Part shown: positions 53,008 through 63,369 of the stretch, piece after piece
Numbering within the stretch: the first letter of the stretch is position 1
Layout of the letters: each line of letters starts with the position of its first letter
NCBI GenBank assembly: GCA_049607505.1
Contig: JBMYWO010000001.1
Coordinates: 1-63,629, forward strand
Direction: 5' to 3'
From: Polaribacter sp.
Lineage (GTDB): Bacteria; Bacteroidota; Bacteroidia; Flavobacteriales; Flavobacteriaceae
DNA length: 63,629 nt
Position numbers and translations under genes: made by a program
The notes under the pieces: model-generated
Database searches by the model: none
What the model saw: the letters and a program-made list of their open reading frames with translations, nothing else
What the model was told of the DNA's origin: nothing

Positions 53008-54033
53008 TTATTTATTATCTAAACTATTATATTTTTCTTTAACAACAGTGTATGCTTGTTTCTTTTTTCTGTTAATGTCAACTATTCCCCAATATTCCTC
53101 ATTGGGTACTCCGTCATAAGGAACTCCGCTACTATTGGGTGCCCAACCTCCAACATCTTGCACATCAGGATTTCCTGCTTTCCACCATCCGTCAGTAAAA
53201 GAAAACATGGCTACACCTAAACAAACTTCTTGTGCTGAACTTGATTCAGTATTAAAAATAGCATTCATAATTTTTGAGGTAGCATCTGCCTGTGCTTTTT
53301 CGTTGATGCCTTGTTTATACTCATCTTTTGCTATTTTCATATAACTATCTGCACCTGCTTCAGATAGATACATGGGTTTTTTACTAATTTTTTCCCATTG
53401 TGGAAATATGGTTTCTGGTTTGTCCCATCTATAGACATTCATTCCCCAAACATCTATATTCGGATTCATAGCTAGTGCTAATGAATCGGGTACTTCTCCA
53501 TGCGCTGTTGCAACAGGATGGGTAGTATCATTTTTATGAATTAAATCGGTTGCTTTATGCATCGCTTTATACCAATTTTTGACATCTCCGTCAAACCATT
53601 CTGGATGGTAATTGTATTCATTTCCCAGTTCCCAAAAAAGAATTGCATTGTGATTTTTAAATTTGTTTACATAGTTTATAAATGTTCCTGAAAGAATATC
53701 ATTTTTACCTCCTTGATTGTAACCAAATCCTACAATTACTTTAATTCCTGCTTTGTGGATTTCATCTAAAACAACAACTTCTTCTATAGGTTCATATACT
53801 CTAATGGTATTGATACTAGCTTCTACCATTAATGCTAAATCTTCAGTTAGATTTCCAAAATCTCTTTTTTCGCTTCCTTTTGGTACTGGGTGGTAACAAA
53901 TTCCTTTGATGGTGTAAGGTTGGTTATTTAGTAATAGTTGTCTTTCTGAAACTTTTACGGTTTCAAGTGTATTTGTTGCGCAACTAAAACAGACAATAAT
54001 ACTAAACAGATATAGGATGTGGTTTTGGTTCAT
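53008..54033 (-). CDS. Clan GH-A glycoside hydrolase lipoprotein (GH2-like TIM barrel, possibly GH158 beta-1,3-glucanase)
   Basis: Lipobox CFSC; IKGICY, INTIRVY, WELGNE, LSEAG; PUL context. Family is inferred. Confidence 0.75.
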   Translation of the reverse strand: MNQNHILYLFSIIVCFSCATNTLETVKVSERQLLLNNQPYTIKGICYHPVPKGSEKRDFGNLTEDLALMVEASINTIRVYEPIEEVVVLDEIHKAGIKVIVGFGYNQGGKNDILSGTFINYVNKFKNHNAILFWELGNEYNYHPEWFDGDVKNWYKAMHKATDLIHKNDTTHPVATAHGEVPDSLALAMNPNIDVWGMNVYRWDKPETIFPQWEKISKKPMYLSEAGADSYMKIAKDEYKQGINEKAQADATSKIMNAIFNTESSSAQEVCLGVAMFSFTDGWWKAGNPDVQDVGGWAPNSSGVPYDGVPNEEYWGIVDINRKKKQAYTVVKEKYNSLDNK

Positions 54034-54086
54034 GTGTTATTTTTATTGTTTTTATCGATCAATTAGCTAGCGTAAGATTAATTATG

Positions 54087-54923
54087 CTACTTTAATTTTT
54101 TTGGGTTTTTTAAACTTTTCTTTTCATCACTTTTTAAACGCCTATTAATTTTACTAATATCTTCTTCTGGTGCTAAATTTTCAGGTTTAATTCCACGTGA
54201 AATTAAAGTGTTTCGTACAGATTTATTGTTTGTAATATGCTCTTTGGAAATTTGAAATTCAGTTTTCATCTTATTCTCTTTAGCATTAAAAATTGTAATT
54301 TCAGTAGCAAAATCTTTGGCTTTTAAAAGTATTGTAGGCATAAAATCAGCTAAAGGCTTATTTTTAACTCCCCATTTATCCTTCATTTGTTGGGTTGTTT
54401 TACCAAATAAAGCAGTATCTCCTTTACTTCTAATTAGTGCAAAATTGTTATTGCCTCCAGTCTGTTCAAATATGACTTGAGATAATTCTTTTTCAGTAGA
54501 TTTTAATTTCTCTCTAGCTTGAACTCTCTCGTGTTCAAGTATTTTTTTCTCAATAAGCTCCGCTTTTCTAGTTTGAATTGCAAAATAACGTTGAGCAAAT
54601 GCTATGGTTTCTTTTCTAGGGTCTCCGTTTTGAGCAATTAAATAACAAGCAAATCTTGTCAACATAATGTCTGAAATTTCTTTTTCTGCTCCAGAGCCGA
54701 TAGTGACCATTTTGTTGACGTCAACAAAATGGTCATCTACTTGTTGTTCAGAAACTTCACAAGCAGTTTTTGCTTTGTTAATTACTAAATTAAAGTTTCT
54801 CCATTCTTTATAACCTAACAAATGCTGTAAATCTCTTGCCATCCAAAATTCAACATTATCAGATGTTTTATGCGAATGAGATTCAAAATCTTTGGTAAGG
54901 CTATGTATTACTGATGTTTTCAT
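54087..54923 (-). CDS. dinD: DNA damage-inducible protein D (BRO-N-like)
   Basis: EFWMARDLQ.LLGY..W.NF, LTRFACYLIAQNGDPRK..IAFAQ.YFA, IRSKGD.ALFG. Confidence 0.88.
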   Translation of the reverse strand: MKTSVIHSLTKDFESHSHKTSDNVEFWMARDLQHLLGYKEWRNFNLVINKAKTACEVSEQQVDDHFVDVNKMVTIGSGAEKEISDIMLTRFACYLIAQNGDPRKETIAFAQRYFAIQTRKAELIEKKILEHERVQAREKLKSTEKELSQVIFEQTGGNNNFALIRSKGDTALFGKTTQQMKDKWGVKNKPLADFMPTILLKAKDFATEITIFNAKENKMKTEFQISKEHITNNKSVRNTLISRGIKPENLAPEEDISKINRRLKSDEKKSLKNPKKLK

Positions 54924-54954
54924 TTTCTAAAAATTATATAATTATACGTTATCA

Positions 54955-54998
54955 AGACCTTTCAAGTTTTGAAAACCTCTTATGTACTCTTATGTACT
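54955..54998. repeat. Truncated copy of the 61601 REP-like palindrome followed by a 10-bp tandem duplication
   Basis: AGACCTTTCAAGTTTTGAAAACCT then CTTATGTACT x2. Confidence 0.6.
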
Positions 54999-55001
54999 TA
55001 G

Positions 55002-56276
55002 CTACCTTTTATAGTCAACATTAGGCACCGAAACATCTTTCATTAAAGCATCTAAATTGCCATTATATGTTTTGGTAATAGTTTTTCCATTTCTTTTTAA
55101 CCCTTTAAAAACTCCTTTATCTACTAGATCCCAAATAGAATATTTGGCTTCGCCTTTTAAGTTGATGAGTCCGAAATGATTTTCTGAACCTAGAGGATTG
55201 CTTGCATCTTTCCATTGTTCGTCAAAGGCTTCAAAATAAAAGCATGTAATTTTTTCTTTGATTGTCCATTCTCGTAAATGTTTATAATACAATCCTTGTT
55301 TGTATTCGTCTGTTGCTCTAGAACCATTTTTTCCATAATGTCCGTTAGAAGTAGTTGCCCAACCTGTTTCACCAATATGAATAGGTTTGTGTACGCCTAT
55401 ACTTTTCATATAGTTTGAAACACTATCATATTGGCTCTTTGCAAAGTTGAATGCTCGTAACATAGCAGCATCAATCTTTTCTTTGTCAGAAAGGTTTTTT
55501 TCTTCTTTTGGAACTTTCCAAAACGCAGGATTATAATGTGAATTATGGTACGGGTATGTATGCATCGATATATAATCTACAGCTTTTGCTAATTTTTCTA
55601 AATCTTTTGTATGATAGCTAGCATCACCTCCACCCCAAGAGGCAAAATCATCTGAACTTGTAATCCATACATCTTTAGGGAGTTTTCCTACTTTTTTTAA
55701 TTCTTGTAAGTGAGTTACCCATTTTAAAATAACATTAGGTTGCACATAATAACTGGTTGCCCATTTTACCATGGCTTCATTACCCACGGCAATAATCTTT
55801 ACAAGATGAGGATATTTTTTTGCTAATAAAACTGCTGTTTTTATCTCGGTTGAATTTCGTTCATTTTCTTCATTATGATTAGGCCCGCCATTTTCCCAAT
55901 TGAAAGCATTTTTGCAATCTATCCAAGCACCTAGCATTACATACATTTCAAAATTTGCATCTTCTTTTGCTAATTCATCTATTACTTTTAATAAATTTGA
56001 TGCCTGTGCTAAATGAACATTATAGGTTCTAACTATTTTTATTCCCATAGCCGACAATAGTTTCATATCGTCTTTTAATTCTTGAATGGTAGGTTGAATA
56101 TCTCTAGATTCTGCTCTATAACCTCCGTAAGAAATTGCTACATAATTTGGATTTCCTAATATATGTGCAGCTGTCGTTCTTCCTTTCTTTGCTGTCTTTT
56201 TTTCATTTTCAGAAATACATCCAACATTAAAACCGAACAGTAAAATGAGTATTGATATTTTAAAACAATTTTTCAT
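55002..56276 (-). CDS. Glycoside hydrolase family 17 (beta-1,3-glucanase) lipoprotein
   Basis: AISYGGYR, IVRTY, IAVGNE, IGETGW, YFEAFDEQWK, SENHFGL. Confidence 0.9.
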   Translation of the reverse strand: MKNCFKISILILLFGFNVGCISENEKKTAKKGRTTAAHILGNPNYVAISYGGYRAESRDIQPTIQELKDDMKLLSAMGIKIVRTYNVHLAQASNLLKVIDELAKEDANFEMYVMLGAWIDCKNAFNWENGGPNHNEENERNSTEIKTAVLLAKKYPHLVKIIAVGNEAMVKWATSYYVQPNVILKWVTHLQELKKVGKLPKDVWITSSDDFASWGGGDASYHTKDLEKLAKAVDYISMHTYPYHNSHYNPAFWKVPKEEKNLSDKEKIDAAMLRAFNFAKSQYDSVSNYMKSIGVHKPIHIGETGWATTSNGHYGKNGSRATDEYKQGLYYKHLREWTIKEKITCFYFEAFDEQWKDASNPLGSENHFGLINLKGEAKYSIWDLVDKGVFKGLKRNGKTITKTYNGNLDALMKDVSVPNVDYKR

Positions 56277-56330
56277 CTAATGGGGTTTGTAACAGATGTC
56301 TATTTTTTGTATTTTCTTATTCAAGGTTAT

Positions 56331-56765
56331 TTATTCTCTCAATGCATCTATCATTTTCAATTTCAATCCCTCGTTAAACGTATCTTCAACTAAGATTGAA
56401 TCTATAATTTCTTTCAGTAAATCTTTATCTATTTTATTGTCAGCTACATAAACAGCAATGTTTTCCATTTCAATAATGAACTTATCTATACAATAGTCAA
56501 TTCCGTTGATTCCAAGTAAATAAGCACCTAACGCTATAGATGTTCTTTTATTTCCGTCACTAAATGCGTGAAATTTATTTACCGAAAAAACAAGATGTGT
56601 CAATTTATCTTCAAATTCTGGATAATATAGATCATTCTGAATATGCTCTAAAACACTTTCTATTTTTCCTATTTCTATGATTCCAAAAGTTCCTCCAGAA
56701 TTTTTAATTATAAAATTGTGCGTTCTAATTGCGTGTTCAATATCAAAATAAATATATGTTTCCAT
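56331..56765 (-). CDS. Doc (death-on-curing)-type Fic-family toxin
   Basis: HAFSDGNKRT motif (Doc-type HxFxDGNKR). Confidence 0.88.
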   Translation of the reverse strand: METYIYFDIEHAIRTHNFIIKNSGGTFGIIEIGKIESVLEHIQNDLYYPEFEDKLTHLVFSVNKFHAFSDGNKRTSIALGAYLLGINGIDYCIDKFIIEMENIAVYVADNKIDKDLLKEIIDSILVEDTFNEGLKLKMIDALRE

Positions 56766-57793
56766 TATCTATTCTTTAATCTTTTGAACACATCTATATT
56801 ATTTAAAATTCTCTCTTCTAAATCTAAACTTTTTTCTCCAAGAAATCTATCAAACTCTTCGGGTGTAAGATGCGTAATGTAATTTTTAAGTTTTTCGTGC
56901 AAGGCATCTCTAAAAACCATATCTCTGCTTGCCATAATTCCTCTAACTTTTTCCCTTAAAGGTTCATATATTGAGTTGGTTATATTTTCAAATTCGTCAA
57001 ATAGAGTATTTGCTTCGGAAAGACGAAGTTTTCGATTTTTTGTTTCAGAGTGTTTTTTTAAAAAATCTGCAAATCCATTCTCATAGCTAGAAATTAAATC
57101 TAACACTTCTGAATACATTGTAGAACGAACATTTTCTTTGTCTTTTAATTTGAGTATTTGACCATATTCTTTTGCGTCTTCTTTGAAGATGCTTTTATAA
57201 ACCTTATTGGTTAATTGAGTATATTTGAATTTATTGGGTTCAACATAATTATCTAAAGCATTTATAAATTCTTTTCTGTAATTATGTTCTTTTAAAGCAC
57301 TAAATAAAAATTGTTCTTCTCTTTGATTTATATATTTAGTACTTCCTCCAAGTTTTTGATTTATTGCGTCTAAAACAATGTCTAAAATAAATGCACGCAG
57401 TAATTTAGCTTTCTCACTTTCCGTTAATAACATTCCAATATTTAGAAATGCACGGAAAGTAAAAACACCTAAAACCGAAGTTTTTTTAAGACCTTCATCT
57501 ATGGTAAGGACATTCATGTCCTTACCATAGGATAACTTAAAGTTTTTCAGTCTATTATGTTTTAAAACCTCATAGCCTGATTCTTTAAATTCTGCTTCAT
57601 TCTTTCTAATATATCTATTAATAGTTCTATCATCAATTTCAAAAAAATCAGCAACCTGTTTTTTTGTAAATCTATATTTGTTTTCAAACATCACTCCTGG
57701 AAAAGAAATTTCAGAATATATTATGTCTAATGCATACTTATTATTCAGAATGTTTTTTCTGTGTAAGTTAGATGTTGTTAAATCTTTTTTCAT
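56765..57793 (-). CDS. Putative DNA-binding protein translationally coupled to Doc
   Basis: wHTH-like FTKKQVADFFEIDDRTINRY; its stop overlaps the Doc start (TAATG). Confidence 0.7.
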   Translation of the reverse strand: MKKDLTTSNLHRKNILNNKYALDIIYSEISFPGVMFENKYRFTKKQVADFFEIDDRTINRYIRKNEAEFKESGYEVLKHNRLKNFKLSYGKDMNVLTIDEGLKKTSVLGVFTFRAFLNIGMLLTESEKAKLLRAFILDIVLDAINQKLGGSTKYINQREEQFLFSALKEHNYRKEFINALDNYVEPNKFKYTQLTNKVYKSIFKEDAKEYGQILKLKDKENVRSTMYSEVLDLISSYENGFADFLKKHSETKNRKLRLSEANTLFDEFENITNSIYEPLREKVRGIMASRDMVFRDALHEKLKNYITHLTPEEFDRFLGEKSLDLEERILNNIDVFKRLKNR

Positions 57794-57878
57794 TTTGTAA
57801 ACTTACGATTTTTGTTTTTTCGTAATCTTGGATATCTATTTTAAAGGCATCTCTAAAAATTTAGGTGTTTTTGAATTG

Positions 57879-58051
57879 ATTTATGGTAACGACATCAATG
57901 TCGTTACCATAGTATAACTTACAATATATCAGTATATTACTATAAAATTTAAAAAACCAAACCCTTCAAATTTCGTTTTATTATTTTTAATATCTATGTT
58001 AGCGACATTGATGTCGTTGACATACGATAACTCAAAGTATTTCAGCCTGTT
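57879..58051 (-). repeat. Two divergent 60-bp copies of an internal palindromic segment of the 342-aa gene
   Basis: 57879-57938 (49/60) and 57992-58051 (48/60) align without gaps to 57497-57556. Confidence 0.85.
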
Positions 58052-58112
58052 ACTAGACAAAATTTTAGAAAACCCAACAACCTATCTTTTTTTCGTAATT
58101 TTGAATAACCAA

Positions 58113-61100
58113 CTATTTTAAAAGCGAAACTTCTATTCTTTCTACTTCTCCGCTTCTTGCAAAAATTGTATGACTAACTTCTTTGTCTAGTTTTAAACCG
58201 TCAAATTTTTTATGGGAGTTATCTCTAAAAAATATTTCTGTTTGAATTTTATTTGAAATTTTATACATAATAGGAACTTGACAATAGGTGAAACAAAGTG
58301 AATTTTTTTCTAAAATTATCGTTTTTATTTCTTTGTTAATGTCTGTATATGTAAAGTTTTTTTGTTCAGACAAAAATTCTTTTCTTCTTAATAATTTTGG
58401 ATTAAAAAGTAAGACTCCATTTTTAACAAAAACTCCTAATTCTCCAAACCTACATAAAACATCTTCTTTTACTTGCCCTGTCATTCCTGGTTGTTGCGCT
58501 CCTTTTCCTGCGGGTGTATGCGAATATGGATCTGTTGGAAAAGCACCATATAATTCTGGTGATTTATGTACGCCAATTCCTTCGTTAATTTCGTAATAAT
58601 GTTCTAACAATCTACCTATTACTTCTTCACTTTCATTATTATTAATTGCTTGTAAACAACTTTCTTGAACCGCCAAAAGCAATTTGGAAACCATGTGCCA
58701 ATAAATAGAACCCAATCCTTCATACCCAAAAAATGTTCCTGATCTTCCGGTAAATGATTTATGATCAAACATTTCTTCAAAAATGTCTAGCAATAATGAT
58801 TTTTCTTCATTAATTAATCGTTGGTATTTTTCTTCTGATAACTCGCCTAATGCCTTTTTTAAACTATCTGCATTATTAAAATCGCCATTAAAATGATATT
58901 CGCCAAGAATATCTTTTTCTAAAATCTGTGTATTTCCGTCTGCAACAAGTTGTTGTAATAATTTTGATTTTTTTACTGATTCAGAAGGAATTATATTCTT
59001 ATTTACAAATCGAGATAATTCTTTATTTGGGTATAATATATAACTGTATTGATCTTCTCTAAAAAGTGGACTTGCTTTTAACGCATCTAACAATTCTAAT
59101 GATGATTCTCCGGAAATATACCCTGAGCTTAACACAGCAACTTGTCCTTCTAACATTTCTGGCAAGTACGAAATAGAAACTTCAGAATCGTTTTTTACCG
59201 TCATTAAATTATAAGCATGAAATAAATTATCTTCTCTTTTATTTGCCGCAATAGTATGATCTAAATATTGTTTTGTAAGGTTAAAAAACTCAATTAAATT
59301 ATCTTTTGAAACGGTTTCTTTATCACTGGAAAAACCATTTTTATAAATTTTAATTCTGTAATCACTTCCAGCATTACCCAAACCATCTAAAATGGTTTTT
59401 CTATCTGTATCTGAAATTTTACCTGACAGAACATTAGTATGATCACTTAAAGTAGTTACAACCGTTTTGAAGAAAGTTGATAATTCTGTAGAAACTAAAT
59501 ACTTTTCTTCGGAAGAGTTTTCAACAATATTTTCAAAAAAATGGATAAATCTTTTTAAATAATAGAGTGTTACCATAGAAACTCCATTACCCACCAGTGC
59601 ATTATTGGCATCATTCCATTCGGGTCTTTGGGTATTTAACCAAATACCTCCTTCTGGAATAAAGTTTGAAATTTTTGCTAAAACGGTTGCTAATAGTTTT
59701 TCTATTAAATTTACTTTATGAATAAAGAAATTTTTATCTCTTAATAATGCACCATCTGCTGCTAATCGTTCTTTTTCTTGATTTATTTTTTCATCTAATT
59801 GGTAATCAAAATCAATGGTGTCTTTTGGGTTTTTTAAGGTATCTTGATAACTTTTTATTTTATAAGGTACATTGGCATACACAAAAAGATCTTGTGTGAA
59901 ACAACTTGATAATTTATTTGGATAGTGATTTTCTATAAACTCTAAAAATTTTAGCAAATAAATGATTTGATGATCACCCCAATATCCAATATAAGACCAA
60001 GGGTCATTTTCTTCAATGGTTTCCCAATCAAAACCGCCTTTGGTAACTCTATACGGGTTGTATCCTTCAAAAGTGGTTGCATTCAAAAACTTGTGAATCA
60101 TTCCTTCTATAAAGGCGGGATATGAATGTGCTAATGCTTCCCAATTTTGAAAAATGTCTCTCCAATTTCCTTGGTAATCTAAAATTTTAGAACCGTCTAT
60201 TTCACTACGTGTGTTGATAGAAAACTTGTTCCAAGGTCTACTTGGGTCTCCGTGTCTTCTGCTAAATTTTAGCGGTAAATATTCAAAACACAGTCTTTTA
60301 AAATTTTTGTCTTCATCTTGATTAGCAAGGTTTTTTATAAAATCAACATTAAAAACTGTTGGTAAATTCTTTAAAATTTCTTCTTTATGTTTGGCTGTTT
60401 TTTTATTGGCTTTTGCAATGTATTGTACAAAATCTACTTTTTCTATTTGATAATTATCATCAAAAATACCGCCTCTCATACTATTGAAAAGTGTATTGGC
60501 AAAATGTCTTGTATTTCTTAATTTGTTATTGCCAAGTTGAATTCCGTCCGCAGCTCCTGCTAGTTCTAAAAGATGTGTAGTTCCTGCATCAACATCTTCT
60601 TGTATTAATTTTTGTAAATCAGTATTGTTTTTTATTTTTTCAGAAATAGCATTAATGTTACTTATGGTTTGATTTACATTAGCAATCAGCATCCAGCTTT
60701 TCTCATTGTTTGCTTCTAAATGAATATCTTTAGAAATAAAATACGCTCCTTTTTCTGCCCTTATATCTCTTTCTTGATGAATTTGGTTTCCATTTCTAAA
60801 ATGGTCTAATTGTAAGGAAGAAATTAAATAGGTAGGATTTTCAATACCTAAAGACCAGACTATATTGGATTTTAATGCTTCACTAGGTTCTGCTCTATCT
60901 ACAATAATGGCACTTAACGCATAAATACCAATGCCTGTTTCTGCTTCTAATTCGCATTTTTTATAAGCATCTACTAAATTACTACTGCTATTTTGTAAAT
61001 CTGACGAAACGCCATAAGGAAGTATATTTTGAATTCCATCTAGAATTGTTATAGCTATTTTTTCATTTGAATTGTTTATGATTTTCGCTTTTCTAACAAA

Positions 61101-61574
61101 ACCAAATTGGTTACTAGAACTCCATTGATACCTAAAAGAAATTCCTAAATCTTCATTTATTTCCTCAAAAAGAACTTTATTCCCATACTTATTTTTATAC
61201 AAATTTCTTTTAATAGAATAAACTCCTTGATACTTATTTGAAAACGGTTCCCACAAAAATGTTTTATCATTTTTATGAACTTGTATACTAGTTTTGCTTC
61301 CTGTAATTTCTGCTGATTCAGTTATTTTATCGTCTGTATAATAAGGAAATAATGCGTTGTTTGCATCTTTTCTACCCGCTGTTAATCCACCATTACTAGA
61401 TATAAACATCCAATGGTTGGAGTTGCTAACGAGACTCATAAAAAAGGGTCTCATTTTATTACTATTGGAAATCTTATAATAAACTTCATTATCAAAATTT
61501 ACTACTTCTCCTTTTACGTTTAATGATTGGTTATTTGCTTTATTTTTTCCTAAATAAATAGTTTTTTTGGTCAT
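58113..61574 (-). CDS. Probable GH149 beta-1,3-glucan phosphorylase
   Basis: 1153 aa, no signal peptide; FSRRHGDPSRPW, YQGNWRDIFQNWE, PTDPYSHTP..GAQQPGMTGQVKE; sits with GH16/GH17. Confidence 0.78.
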   Translation of the reverse strand: MTKKTIYLGKNKANNQSLNVKGEVVNFDNEVYYKISNSNKMRPFFMSLVSNSNHWMFISSNGGLTAGRKDANNALFPYYTDDKITESAEITGSKTSIQVHKNDKTFLWEPFSNKYQGVYSIKRNLYKNKYGNKVLFEEINEDLGISFRYQWSSSNQFGFVRKAKIINNSNEKIAITILDGIQNILPYGVSSDLQNSSSNLVDAYKKCELEAETGIGIYALSAIIVDRAEPSEALKSNIVWSLGIENPTYLISSLQLDHFRNGNQIHQERDIRAEKGAYFISKDIHLEANNEKSWMLIANVNQTISNINAISEKIKNNTDLQKLIQEDVDAGTTHLLELAGAADGIQLGNNKLRNTRHFANTLFNSMRGGIFDDNYQIEKVDFVQYIAKANKKTAKHKEEILKNLPTVFNVDFIKNLANQDEDKNFKRLCFEYLPLKFSRRHGDPSRPWNKFSINTRSEIDGSKILDYQGNWRDIFQNWEALAHSYPAFIEGMIHKFLNATTFEGYNPYRVTKGGFDWETIEENDPWSYIGYWGDHQIIYLLKFLEFIENHYPNKLSSCFTQDLFVYANVPYKIKSYQDTLKNPKDTIDFDYQLDEKINQEKERLAADGALLRDKNFFIHKVNLIEKLLATVLAKISNFIPEGGIWLNTQRPEWNDANNALVGNGVSMVTLYYLKRFIHFFENIVENSSEEKYLVSTELSTFFKTVVTTLSDHTNVLSGKISDTDRKTILDGLGNAGSDYRIKIYKNGFSSDKETVSKDNLIEFFNLTKQYLDHTIAANKREDNLFHAYNLMTVKNDSEVSISYLPEMLEGQVAVLSSGYISGESSLELLDALKASPLFREDQYSYILYPNKELSRFVNKNIIPSESVKKSKLLQQLVADGNTQILEKDILGEYHFNGDFNNADSLKKALGELSEEKYQRLINEEKSLLLDIFEEMFDHKSFTGRSGTFFGYEGLGSIYWHMVSKLLLAVQESCLQAINNNESEEVIGRLLEHYYEINEGIGVHKSPELYGAFPTDPYSHTPAGKGAQQPGMTGQVKEDVLCRFGELGVFVKNGVLLFNPKLLRRKEFLSEQKNFTYTDINKEIKTIILEKNSLCFTYCQVPIMYKISNKIQTEIFFRDNSHKKFDGLKLDKEVSHTIFARSGEVERIEVSLLK

Positions 61575-61600
61575 TTGGTTGTTGATTCTATCAGGGTTGA

Positions 61601-61633
61601 AGACCTTTCAGGTTTTGAAAACCTGAAAGGTCT
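61601..61633. repeat. Perfect REP-like palindrome
   Basis: AGACCTTTCAGGTTTT-G-AAAACCTGAAAGGTCT; relatives at 54955 and 26061. Confidence 0.8.
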
Positions 61634-61644
61634 AGTTTGATAAT

Positions 61645-61679
61645 AAAAAAGGTCGGACAATGAAAAAAATCCGACCTTT
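61645..61679 (-). terminator. Terminator/attenuator downstream of GH16
   Basis: AAAGGTCGGA / TCCGACCTTT stem with a U-tract on the minus strand. Confidence 0.65.
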
Positions 61680-61697
61680 ATGAATAAATTTAAAAAG

Positions 61698-63350
61698 TTA
61701 TCGATACACTTTTACATAATCAATTTCCATCATATCTTCTGTAAATGCGGGGTCTATAGTACCGCCTAATGTACCTCCCATAGCTACATTAAGAATTAAG
61801 AAAAAGTCTGCATTAAATGGCGTAGTTGAATTGTTTGCAAAGGTATGGAAGAGTACATCATCTAAATAAAATTGAATTGAAGTATCTGTCCATTCTACAG
61901 TATAATTATGAAATTCACTTGAAGCATTTGTAATAGCCGTTGATTCCGAAGGGCCATTTCCTGCAAAGTTCCCCGGGTAATGCAAGGTACTAAGAACGGT
62001 ATTTTTATCCTGCCCTGTTTGCTCCATAATATCCATTTCTCCAGAAGCTGGCCATCCAACCGTAGGGAAGTTAGCTCCTAACATCCAAATTGCTGGCCAT
62101 GTACCTGTTGCCGCAGGCAATTTTGCCCGTACTTCTACTCTACCGTAGGTAAATGCGTATAATCCTTGTGTTTTTAATCTTGCTGATGTATAACCGCCTC
62201 CATTGGCTTTTGCTATTATTTTTAATGAACCTCCTTCTACTTTTACATTTTCTGCATTGTTGGTATAGGTTTGAGATTCACCATTACCCCAACCTCCAGC
62301 ACCAAGGTCATACGTCCATTTGGTAGCGTCTGGTGTTCCGTCAGTATTAAAATCATCTTCCCAAGCTAAAGTATTGTATTGATAGTCAGGGTCTTGAATG
62401 GGTTTTGTAGAAGTAAATCTATGATACCACGCAAATCCGTCTCCAACTTGAATAATTCTAACAATCAATTCATCATTTGTTATTGAAATAATATCGTAAG
62501 TGCTAGCTCCTACAAACCATCCCATAAAACCTCCATCGGAAATTTCAAAAGTGGTTCCTCTATAAGGTTCGTTATTGTAAGATCCTTCTACGGCAGCTTT
62601 GGATGAGGAAGGTGCAAAAGAAACATTTTTTACTCCAAACATTGTCGTTGCAACTGTTTGGTCATGACATTGATCGCCTGCTACGCCAATTTCACTTGCA
62701 TAGGCTCCAGGAACAAATGCGGGTCCAACAGTTTGTTCAAAGGTAATTCCGTTGGCTGTTCTTGTAAATACAAACTCATTGTCATACATACAAGATTTTT
62801 CGCTGTCAAAAGGCCCTATGGTATTCCACCACGCTTCATAGGCAAACTCACCATTTCCATAATCATCGGTTACAGGGCCTAAACCTACGTGTGTATTTAC
62901 ATCGGCTTGCCAATACCATTTTTTACTATCGCCTACATTTGCGCCACTTAAAAAGTTTTCTGCTTCTACATCTGTAAAAGAACTAAATACTTCCACATCT
63001 ATAGAGGTTGTAGAAGATACTCCGCCTTTTCCGTTTGCTTTTACAATAACTGTATAGGTATTTACGCCCACTCTAGAAAATCTTTTTGTAATATTTCCCG
63101 AAGGGGAAGCTGTTGCAGATCCGTCAAAATAGTAAACATAAGATATTGCATTGTCTGCTCTGGCTGTAAAATTTACCATTCCACTACCATCTCCATTTGG
63201 ATTGCTAGCATCTACACCAATTATTTCTGCTGTAATAACAACATTAGAAGGAGTTATAATATCTCCAAATTCATAATCGTTTTCTTGACAACCAAAAAAA
63301 GTAAGGGCTATCGAAAATAATACGATATACATATTTTTAAATTTTTTCAT
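61698..63350 (-). CDS. GH16 laminarinase lipoprotein with N-terminal PKD-like domain
   Basis: Lipobox FFGC; WPAIWMLG, catalytic EMDIME, GWGNGESQ.Y, YTSARL. Confidence 0.93.
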   Translation of the reverse strand: MKKFKNMYIVLFSIALTFFGCQENDYEFGDIITPSNVVITAEIIGVDASNPNGDGSGMVNFTARADNAISYVYYFDGSATASPSGNITKRFSRVGVNTYTVIVKANGKGGVSSTTSIDVEVFSSFTDVEAENFLSGANVGDSKKWYWQADVNTHVGLGPVTDDYGNGEFAYEAWWNTIGPFDSEKSCMYDNEFVFTRTANGITFEQTVGPAFVPGAYASEIGVAGDQCHDQTVATTMFGVKNVSFAPSSSKAAVEGSYNNEPYRGTTFEISDGGFMGWFVGASTYDIISITNDELIVRIIQVGDGFAWYHRFTSTKPIQDPDYQYNTLAWEDDFNTDGTPDATKWTYDLGAGGWGNGESQTYTNNAENVKVEGGSLKIIAKANGGGYTSARLKTQGLYAFTYGRVEVRAKLPAATGTWPAIWMLGANFPTVGWPASGEMDIMEQTGQDKNTVLSTLHYPGNFAGNGPSESTAITNASSEFHNYTVEWTDTSIQFYLDDVLFHTFANNSTTPFNADFFLILNVAMGGTLGGTIDPAFTEDMMEIDYVKVYR

Positions 63351-63369
63351 ACTATACATCTTTACTTAA

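Follow-up and report, generated by a model that had tools for sequence, protein, structure and literature searches.

A perfect palindrome within the coding sequence of a 342-aa protein of Polaribacter sp. is probably the operator of the protein that it helps to encode, and two variant copies upstream of the gene are, on the same reading, operator-bearing remnants of a collapsed duplicate of the D59 type (the site type that accompanies aspartate at residue 59 of the protein). We consider it likely that the gene forms part of a type II Doc toxin-antitoxin module in which the antitoxin represses its own operon via a cognate palindrome, usually carried in frame. Positions are those of the window, the whole 63,629-nucleotide stretch of DNA that was analyzed (Table 1).

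TABLE 1 Features of the module and its palindromes in the window
Feature	Position	Strand	Basis
Whole ~1.8-kb insertion, separating the 1153-aa gene from GH17	56277..58112	-	Genus relatives compared
Doc/Fic toxin gene, PDC-M59B-like	56331..56765	-	Pfam Fic, NCBIfam DOC_P1, PADLOC
342-aa gene, PDC-M59A-like predicted antitoxin	56765..57793	-	PADLOC, AF2, fold search, complex model
In-gene palindrome, predicted N59-type cognate operator	57499..57530	.	Repeat search, covariation, AF2
Codons 55-60 (D-R-T-I-N-R), predicted recognition helix	57614..57631	-	AF2 model and covariation of 56, 59, and 60
Direct repeat, inner copy (upstream gene end plus module leader)	57814..57846	-	Repeat search
16-bp piece left from the 3' part of the duplicate (source, 56901-56916)	57844..57859	-	Exact repeat
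Remnant A, ~145-bp frameshifted duplicate piece (gene nt ~182-328)	57851..57993	-	Alignment
Remnant B, ~74-bp piece (gene nt 224-297)	57992..58065	-	Alignment
Direct repeat, outer copy, overlapping the 1153-aa gene stop; left end of the duplicated block	58087..58122	-	Repeat search

The gene pair and its locus

The module interrupts a glucan-utilization operon between a 1153-aa gene and a GH17 gene. In 21 of 29 genus relatives, GH17 begins ~6 to 125 bp past the 1153-aa gene, and in the other 8 a different gene follows; the module was absent from the end of the 1153-aa gene in these 29 relatives (60 to 400 bases examined in each). Because the flanking genes are adjacent in 21 of the 29, the PDC-M59-like module represents an insertion in this window. 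The 342-aa protein was present in 1 of 36 other genus genomes searched. We also observed that the co-oriented glucan-utilization operon (window 53008-63359) carries two separate accessory insertions, dinD and the PDC-M59-like pair, with possible polar effects or read-through onto doc.

The 342-aa protein matched the PADLOC profile PDC-M59A (E 7.2e-102, residues 3-341) and the Doc protein matched PDC-M59B (E 1.1e-28, residues 4-142), and the two genes are adjacent, in order, and overlap at stop and start. Both thus match the profiles of PDC-M59 full-length and in the same order (Payne et al. 2024, bioRxiv 10.1101/2024.01.29.577857). In the main text of that paper, PDCs are predicted phage-defense candidates and the definition of the pair includes neither an operator nor a code, unlike our reading; neither M59 nor palindromes appear in that main text, and its supplements may describe M59. 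The Doc protein has an intact HxFxDGNKR motif (H66, F68, and D70 to R74 invariant in 31 sequences), scored above the NCBIfam DOC_P1 cut-off, and also matched Pfam Fic. The Doc motif lay just 3' of the antitoxin-like gene in 164 of 173 family loci. For the 342-aa protein, the Pfam ORF6N match was below cut-off (PF10543, 16.2 bits against a gathering cut-off of 27.8, E 0.013), the Atlas assigned an ORF6N cluster (0.92), and Pfam and NCBIfam searches at E 0.1 gave no Phd-family match.

In the AF2 model of the 342-aa protein (mean pLDDT 69, pTM 0.42), the N-terminal HTH was well predicted, including helix 55-64, the predicted recognition helix. The best fold match was DdrC (Z 8.2, rmsd 9.2, 191 residues aligned; N-domain Z 6.6, rmsd 3.5), a middling match that serves as a lead only. 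Foldseek returned no match for the protein at E ≤ 0.001, and a single-sequence model of residues 1-150 had a pLDDT of 36 and was useless. A complex model of the protein with Doc scored 0.88 (best control, 0.01), with at least 77% of contacts common to runs and a partner pLDDT of at least 87; the mark for this score was reached by 116 of 157 solved pairs and by 2 of 215 mismatched pairs. In the model, the C-terminal helices 317-342 contact Doc near residues 71-82, supporting the prediction that the antitoxin binds Doc through these helices, although the score may stem from likeness to solved Doc complexes. The protein is therefore predicted by modeling to combine an N-terminal winged HTH like that of ORF6N or the DdrC N-terminal domain with C-terminal Doc-binding helices.

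Among 67 loci scanned from 76 representatives, the upstream neighbor was a restriction-modification gene in 22 and had some PADLOC match in 34. In the available text of PMC3710099, RhuM-like and Doc genes are linked to restriction-modification loci and RhuM is proposed as a toxin. Many close relatives of the module (L002, L003, L007, L083-L096, and L106) were flanked by short inverted repeats followed by long imperfect repeats. These presumably resemble attC or integron cassette ends, as in Flavobacteriaceae arrays; our literature search found nothing specific on this point. More distant members in two Streptococcus satellite phages (L210 and L212, where the family gene is annotated as "CiaB protein") and an Ilyobacter plasmid (L211) had 44 to 58% identity and kept the core palindrome in frame. 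No relative was found in the viral contigs scanned. One genome (G416) holds three family members with different sites, a natural case for cross-talk between alleles.

The in-gene palindrome and its covariation with the predicted recognition helix

As the preliminary description had reported, the palindrome is a perfect hairpin with 15-bp arms; its loop is 2 nt long. It encodes the region around residues 89-98 of the protein. In a profile scan of 145 loci, we observed the hairpin in the gene only in 127, upstream only in 8, in both places in 1 (the window), and in neither place in 9. A sequence-agnostic scan of 192 loci found it in the coding sequence of 173, only upstream in 12, and in neither place in 7; 8 of the 12 rows with hairpins in both places were unrelated hairpins set aside by eye. 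Of 204 loci, 8 had been dropped as partial. Among control windows, hairpins occurred in 3 of 163 distant upstream and 1 of 189 other coding windows. Twelve of the 19 loci without a strong coding copy carried the hairpin 28 to 89 bp upstream of the ATG, mostly at 28 to 42 bp, and the seven loci scored as neither included six with a weakened in-gene core and one with a weakened upstream site. On the family tree, the location of the hairpin switched at least four times. A degenerate pattern of the palindrome occurred in 3 of 267 genus genomes, every time at an antitoxin-like gene, and was never found in these genomes without such a gene. The loop peptide is missing from the proteins whose site lies upstream, and entire lineages lack it. 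Since the hairpin is family-wide, linked to the gene, and relocates with loss of the peptide, the DNA is the conserved entity and the peptide a by-product. Together with the covariation described below, this makes the palindrome most probably a cognate operator whose translation yields a loop that the protein can do without.

The preliminary description had left open whether the segment forms a surface loop or a recognition helix. The AF2 model placed the hairpin-encoded peptide in a low-confidence loop (pLDDT < 50 at 93-97) and not in the recognition helix. We rejected the peptide as the recognition element, considering this low-confidence loop and the absence of the peptide where the same site lies upstream. 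The suggestion that the segment is hypervariable held in part: its entropy was about twice the mean (0.92 versus 0.40), but it ranked 7th of 333 windows and other segments were more variable. Palindromes of the REP and MITE types and the Rickettsia palindromic elements also occur in coding regions, translated in frame in a tolerant loop. Those elements are dispersed, whereas the palindrome described here was found only at the antitoxin-like gene and was absent from 264 of the 267 genus genomes, leading us to reject a dispersed element. An insertion target was likewise rejected, as no palindrome was present at empty sites.

Alleles of the palindrome covaried with the predicted recognition helix. 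By eye, R60 accompanied a GAC/GTC core, N60 or A60 accompanied GAA/TTC, and S56 accompanied CT(C/T)/(G/A)AG. Residues 56 and 60 were first picked in this way, and residue 59 came from a column scan. In APC-corrected mutual information across 315 non-loop columns and 73 rows (with L235 entered by its upstream rather than its in-gene site), base 3 was tied most strongly to column 60, bases 4 and 5 to column 56, and bases 6 and 7 to column 59. In a set of 141 distinct proteins with R56/R60 and a single site, E59 occurred with left-arm CC in 68 of 77, D59 with left-arm A in 47 of 51, and a non-acidic residue 59 with G at base 6 in 12 of 13. The window protein has N59 and its in-gene site is of the G-at-6 type, which fits. 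On a careful tree of 93 rows with the helix and loop columns removed, with which quick trees agreed, 8 of 9 independent pairs agreed for residue 59 (p 0.008) and none was opposite; a second contrast gave 8.6 of 11 in agreement (median p 0.004, range to 0.039), again with none opposite. These tests set aside 15 named multi-site loci and proteins of <250 aa. Pairs for residues 56 (3/3) and 60 (2/2) also agreed and were too few for significance alone.

Linkage is the main caveat to this analysis, in that the helix codons and the hairpin lie ~100 bp apart and co-transfer as a block could mimic covariation. Two controls, the equally linked residue 76 and the outer base 10, were flat, and the code also fits upstream sites in noncoding DNA (8/8 E59, all in one clade, and 3/3 S56). 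These findings argue against co-transfer, short of excluding it. Exceptions were the upstream site of L251, unfit for its N59, and the in-gene site of L235, unfit for its helix, which the upstream site fits. The outer arm bases 8-14 compensate each other and yet have no helix correlate, so the operator model alone is insufficient there; part of this compensation may come from template switching or from a structural role. We also observed that residues 55-106 of the window gene look mosaic, with K78 of one allele group and the hairpin and 3' residues of the other; K or R at 78 occurred with G90, K103, and S106 in 2 of 81 proteins.

In HTH proteins, residues i, i+3, and i+4 on one helix face read adjacent bases of a dyad. 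In the mechanism that we propose, a dimer of the antitoxin, or the antitoxin-Doc complex, would bind the dyad core, with residue 60 reading base 3, residue 56 reading bases 4-5, and residue 59 reading bases 6-7. A site at -28 to -42 would repress the operon by promoter occlusion, and a site 275 to 310 bp into the gene, a poor operator position for simple repression, would act by roadblock or looping. Intragenic operators that act in these ways include lac O2 in lacZ and the PurR site in purB. Those sites are fixed and serve a separate regulator, whereas the palindrome here lies in the regulator's own gene, encodes an optional peptide loop, and coevolves with a helix. Operator autoregulation is also typical of type II Phd-Doc modules, which the present family resembles in having a Doc with an intact motif 3' of a DNA-binding partner, a predicted C-terminal Doc-binding region, and, in some members, a palindromic site at the promoter. 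The family differs in its partner, a 342-aa ORF6N/DdrC-like winged-HTH protein without a Phd match, in the usual position of the site inside the reading frame, and in the repeated switching of specificity.

An IHF-like motif follows the in-gene hairpin on its 3' side in 26 of the 61 members with long inserts, as against 24 of 244 control coding windows. It was also found beside many upstream sites, and a perfect match adjoins copy A (window 57912-57961). We call the motif IHF-like by its resemblance to the IHF consensus. The variable inserts may constitute a further DNA site that the gene translates in frame.

Copies of the palindrome upstream of the gene

Both upstream copies were found as first described, co-oriented, 113 bp apart, and with the translations given then (A, 57879-57938, 49/60; B, 57992-58051, 48/60), but they are not gap-free 60-bp units: A aligns over 127 to 153 bp with a 1-nt gap and B over 74 bp. 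Copy A is 71% identical to nt 174-300 of the window gene, with the single 1-nt gap, and 69% identical to nt 176-328 of a relative; copy B (nt 224-297) is 82% identical to L093/L094. Elsewhere in the 2.39-Mb assembly no match exceeded 38/60, and that match was copy A on the other strand. The changes in the arms also proved as described. Copy A has perfect 14-bp arms with a paired G>C/C>G change, and its palindrome (57882-57911) is of the D59 type and centered 104 bp upstream of the ATG. The palindrome of copy B (57995-58024), also of the D59 type and centered 217 bp upstream, pairs at 12 of 14 positions; both mismatched positions are G.T if read on the + (template) strand and A.C if read on the coding strand.

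The 16-bp piece from the 3' part of the gene recurs exactly upstream, and only 1 of ~2,995 random 320-bp genome windows reached ≥16 against that 3' part. The 18-bp motif said to bracket the array is real and lies within a degenerate direct repeat of ~35 bp, into which the stop codon of the upstream gene falls. It was rejected as a genome-wide motif, as its core occurs only twice. The inner repeat copy is followed by a conserved leader hairpin and then, just before the ATG, by a promoter-like TAnnTTTA, which we take to be the Bacteroidota -7 consensus. A sigma-70 promoter scan remained at chance level (9 versus 12.2). The junction of A and B is a 6-bp microhomology, and the 16-bp remnant is joined to A at a short microhomology. 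From this anatomy we infer a partial tandem duplicate collapsed by deletions: a duplication running from the end of the upstream gene into the 342-aa gene would have been shrunk by microhomology deletions, leaving two sites.

Copy A is frameshifted and begins at about codon 61, so that it encodes none of the helix residues 56-60. In P0002, a relative with 91% identity, residue 59 is D and the loop shows the G-N-D reading of copy A, and copy B matches other alleles better (51/60) than it does the resident gene (48/60). Together with the D59 type of both sites, these findings indicate that A and B derive from a D59 allele. The preliminary description had counted collapsed older alleles among its explanations, and for the upstream copies this is supported by the remnant anatomy, the D59 type, and P0002. 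Its option of palindromic operators also gains strong support, from the helix-base covariation and from relocation to the promoter, with binding as a prediction. The window protein carries N59 and its in-gene site fits that residue, so the D59-type sites of A and B are predicted to be noncognate at present; by the same prediction, one transition (N59D) would turn them into cognate sites. They nevertheless keep 39 of 40 near-invariant hairpin positions, compared with 54 of 71 flank positions (Fisher p 0.003), a difference that suggests, at the level of sequence, selection on the hairpins now or until recently. The operator reading leaves the intactness of these predicted noncognate sites unaccounted for.

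The expectation that upstream copies recur in homologous loci was borne out in L225, L235, and L244, but only 4 of 173 loci with an in-gene copy also had an upstream copy of the family type. L244 (R56) carries, 26 bp upstream, an S56-type copy that retains 72 bp of flank derived from coding sequence, and L225 (S56) has an R56-type copy at -42. In 11 genes with 2 to 4 tandem in-frame hairpins, each had at least one copy that fits residue 59 as judged from left-arm bases, and 9 of the 11 also held nonfitting copies (L017 and L103 are near-identical); 3 of 14 rows of the multi-site set (L042, L051, and L069) were offset artefacts and were dropped. Overlapping contigs from metagenome runs X1 and X2, runs from which the DNA may derive, jointly cover the array and showed no differences from its sequence, and 57883-58485 likewise showed none in run X3 of the same study. 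Other contigs listed from two studies had joints without the array, with one copy, or with further 112- to 114-bp units. These variant contigs, mostly at a depth of 3 to 8 (one at 20), are hints, and other organisms may be their source.

Independently of what the in-gene site does, a one-off duplication may have left the upstream copies as debris without function, an explanation that we regard as somewhat unlikely. The frameshift, the deletions, the microhomology joints, and the predicted noncognate state of both copies would all be expected of debris, and some of the related contigs listed join the gene start to the end of the upstream gene with no array. The preferential preservation of hairpin positions, the recurrence of units in varying number in the runs of the second study, and the emergence of similar upstream copies in L225, L235, and L244 argue against it.

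Competing readings and implications

A further possibility, which we judge to be improbable, is that the protein does read the palindrome, but as a defense self-marker or gate like the aba element of BstA rather than as a transcriptional operator. Antitoxin on DNA would then keep Doc in check, Doc would be set off when the site is lost or diluted, and extra noncognate copies would protect against, or titrate, other alleles. The covariation data are equally compatible with such a gate, which the in-gene position suits as well as it does an operator. The standing of the pair as a PADLOC defense candidate, the defense and restriction-modification genes among its neighbors, and the noncognate copies kept in the window, L225, and L244 also favor this possibility. 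In the available text of PMC8585504, BstA is a KilA-N-like HTH protein with a short cognate element in its own locus, overlapping its own gene and with allele-specific variants. With respect to such an element, the covariation in our family would imply cognate pairs. The aba element of the same text measures 63 bp, carries direct repeats at its ends, and occurs at the gene start in prophages with no Doc, whereas the window element is an inverted repeat; the words "palindrom" and "inverted repeat" do not occur in that text, which also reports no residue-base code for BstA, in contrast to the residue-base covariation of our family. No BstA profile was among the PADLOC matches of the window proteins, and the parts of the literature examined contained no phage data for PDC-M59. 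Sites outside the gene lie mostly in the classic operator position, 28 to 42 bp before the ATG, and the C terminus is predicted by modeling to contact Doc itself, the arrangement found in ordinary type II systems; both favor the operator.

Very unlikely, in our assessment, is a palindrome that serves only as structure (a single-strand hairpin or cruciform) or arises from template-switching symmetry, with the helix covariation as hitchhiking. The arms do compensate far above chance at pairs 7-10 (observed, 0.70, 0.64, 0.90, and 0.97; expected, 0.35, 0.31, 0.49, and 0.55), including outer pairs without a helix correlate. On the coding strand, A.C mismatches outnumber G.T mismatches in the arms (88 versus 43), and A.C there corresponds to G.T on the template strand. 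For DdrC, the best fold match, the source available gives a role as a sensor of DNA breaks. Such a role leaves unexplained why covariation singles out residues 56, 59, and 60 among 315 columns with residue 76 and base 10 flat, and why the code also fits upstream noncoding sites. Template switching does not account for an upstream site in genes without a coding copy, and the innermost pair is still mismatched in 37 of 128 sites. The same mismatch ratio makes an mRNA hairpin unlikely, although amino acid constraints may bias it, and Rfam gave no match over the three window hairpins at E ≤ 1.

Least probable of all is the first option of the preliminary description, that A and B are silent donor cassettes for gene conversion: A- and B-type alleles do occur in other homologues, the segment entropy is raised, the window gene has the look of a mosaic of two allele groups, and related contigs listed show further 112- to 114-bp units and copies closer to the gene's allele, but the protein can do without the loop peptide, the frameshifted copy A contains none of the helix codons, so few loci have an upstream copy beside an in-gene one, other segments vary more, a D59-type site from A in an N59 gene is predicted to break self-recognition, and no A- or B-type arm lay inside the gene among the contig differences listed, in contigs that drop rare variants.

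The window also contains a second perfect coding palindrome, with 16-bp arms, at 54704-54735 in dinD (54087-54923, - strand), a Bro-N/DinD gene that matched PADLOC PDC-S13 (E 9e-115). A palindrome with changed arms and 12 to 14 of 14 pairs occurred at the same place in four other full-length close homologues and two broken copies, and none was found in two distant homologues or three weaker fragments. The window genome further carries an abundant REP-like palindrome family with 15- to 19-bp arms and dozens of copies (for example, 61601-61633), including a decayed copy near 54940-54980, just upstream of dinD. This family is unrelated to the antitoxin-gene palindrome. A self-encoded operator, if true, would explain the coding palindrome of dinD 2.8 kb away, and DinD/Bro-N, RhuM, and ORF6N genes may share the design; our literature search found no coding palindromes described in ORF6N, RhuM, or DinD genes.

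The gene pair is already catalogued, and precedents exist for operators, for operators inside genes, and for cognate DNA elements. For the palindrome, its code, the relocation of the site, or PDC-M59, our literature search, whose scope comprised few subscription papers, returned no account. A more far-reaching version of the operator reading, to which we give a low though appreciable probability, is a self-encoding repressor-operator system with a code at residues 56, 59, and 60, in which mixed arrays of sites, whether in frame or upstream, are a maintained specificity library. Such a library would allow a one-codon change of operator specificity while keeping control of Doc or, alternatively, would sense or titrate the antitoxins of incoming allelic modules.

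With the operator as the favored reading, a catalogued but unstudied defense candidate gains a predicted mechanism as a Doc module with its antitoxin, a predicted operator, and a predicted base-by-base code. An operator that is translated, relocates, and duplicates would offer a route by which repressor and site could change together without an intermediate in which the toxin is uncontrolled, and the window, with an N59 gene and two intact D59-type sites upstream, would represent a mid-step of such a route.
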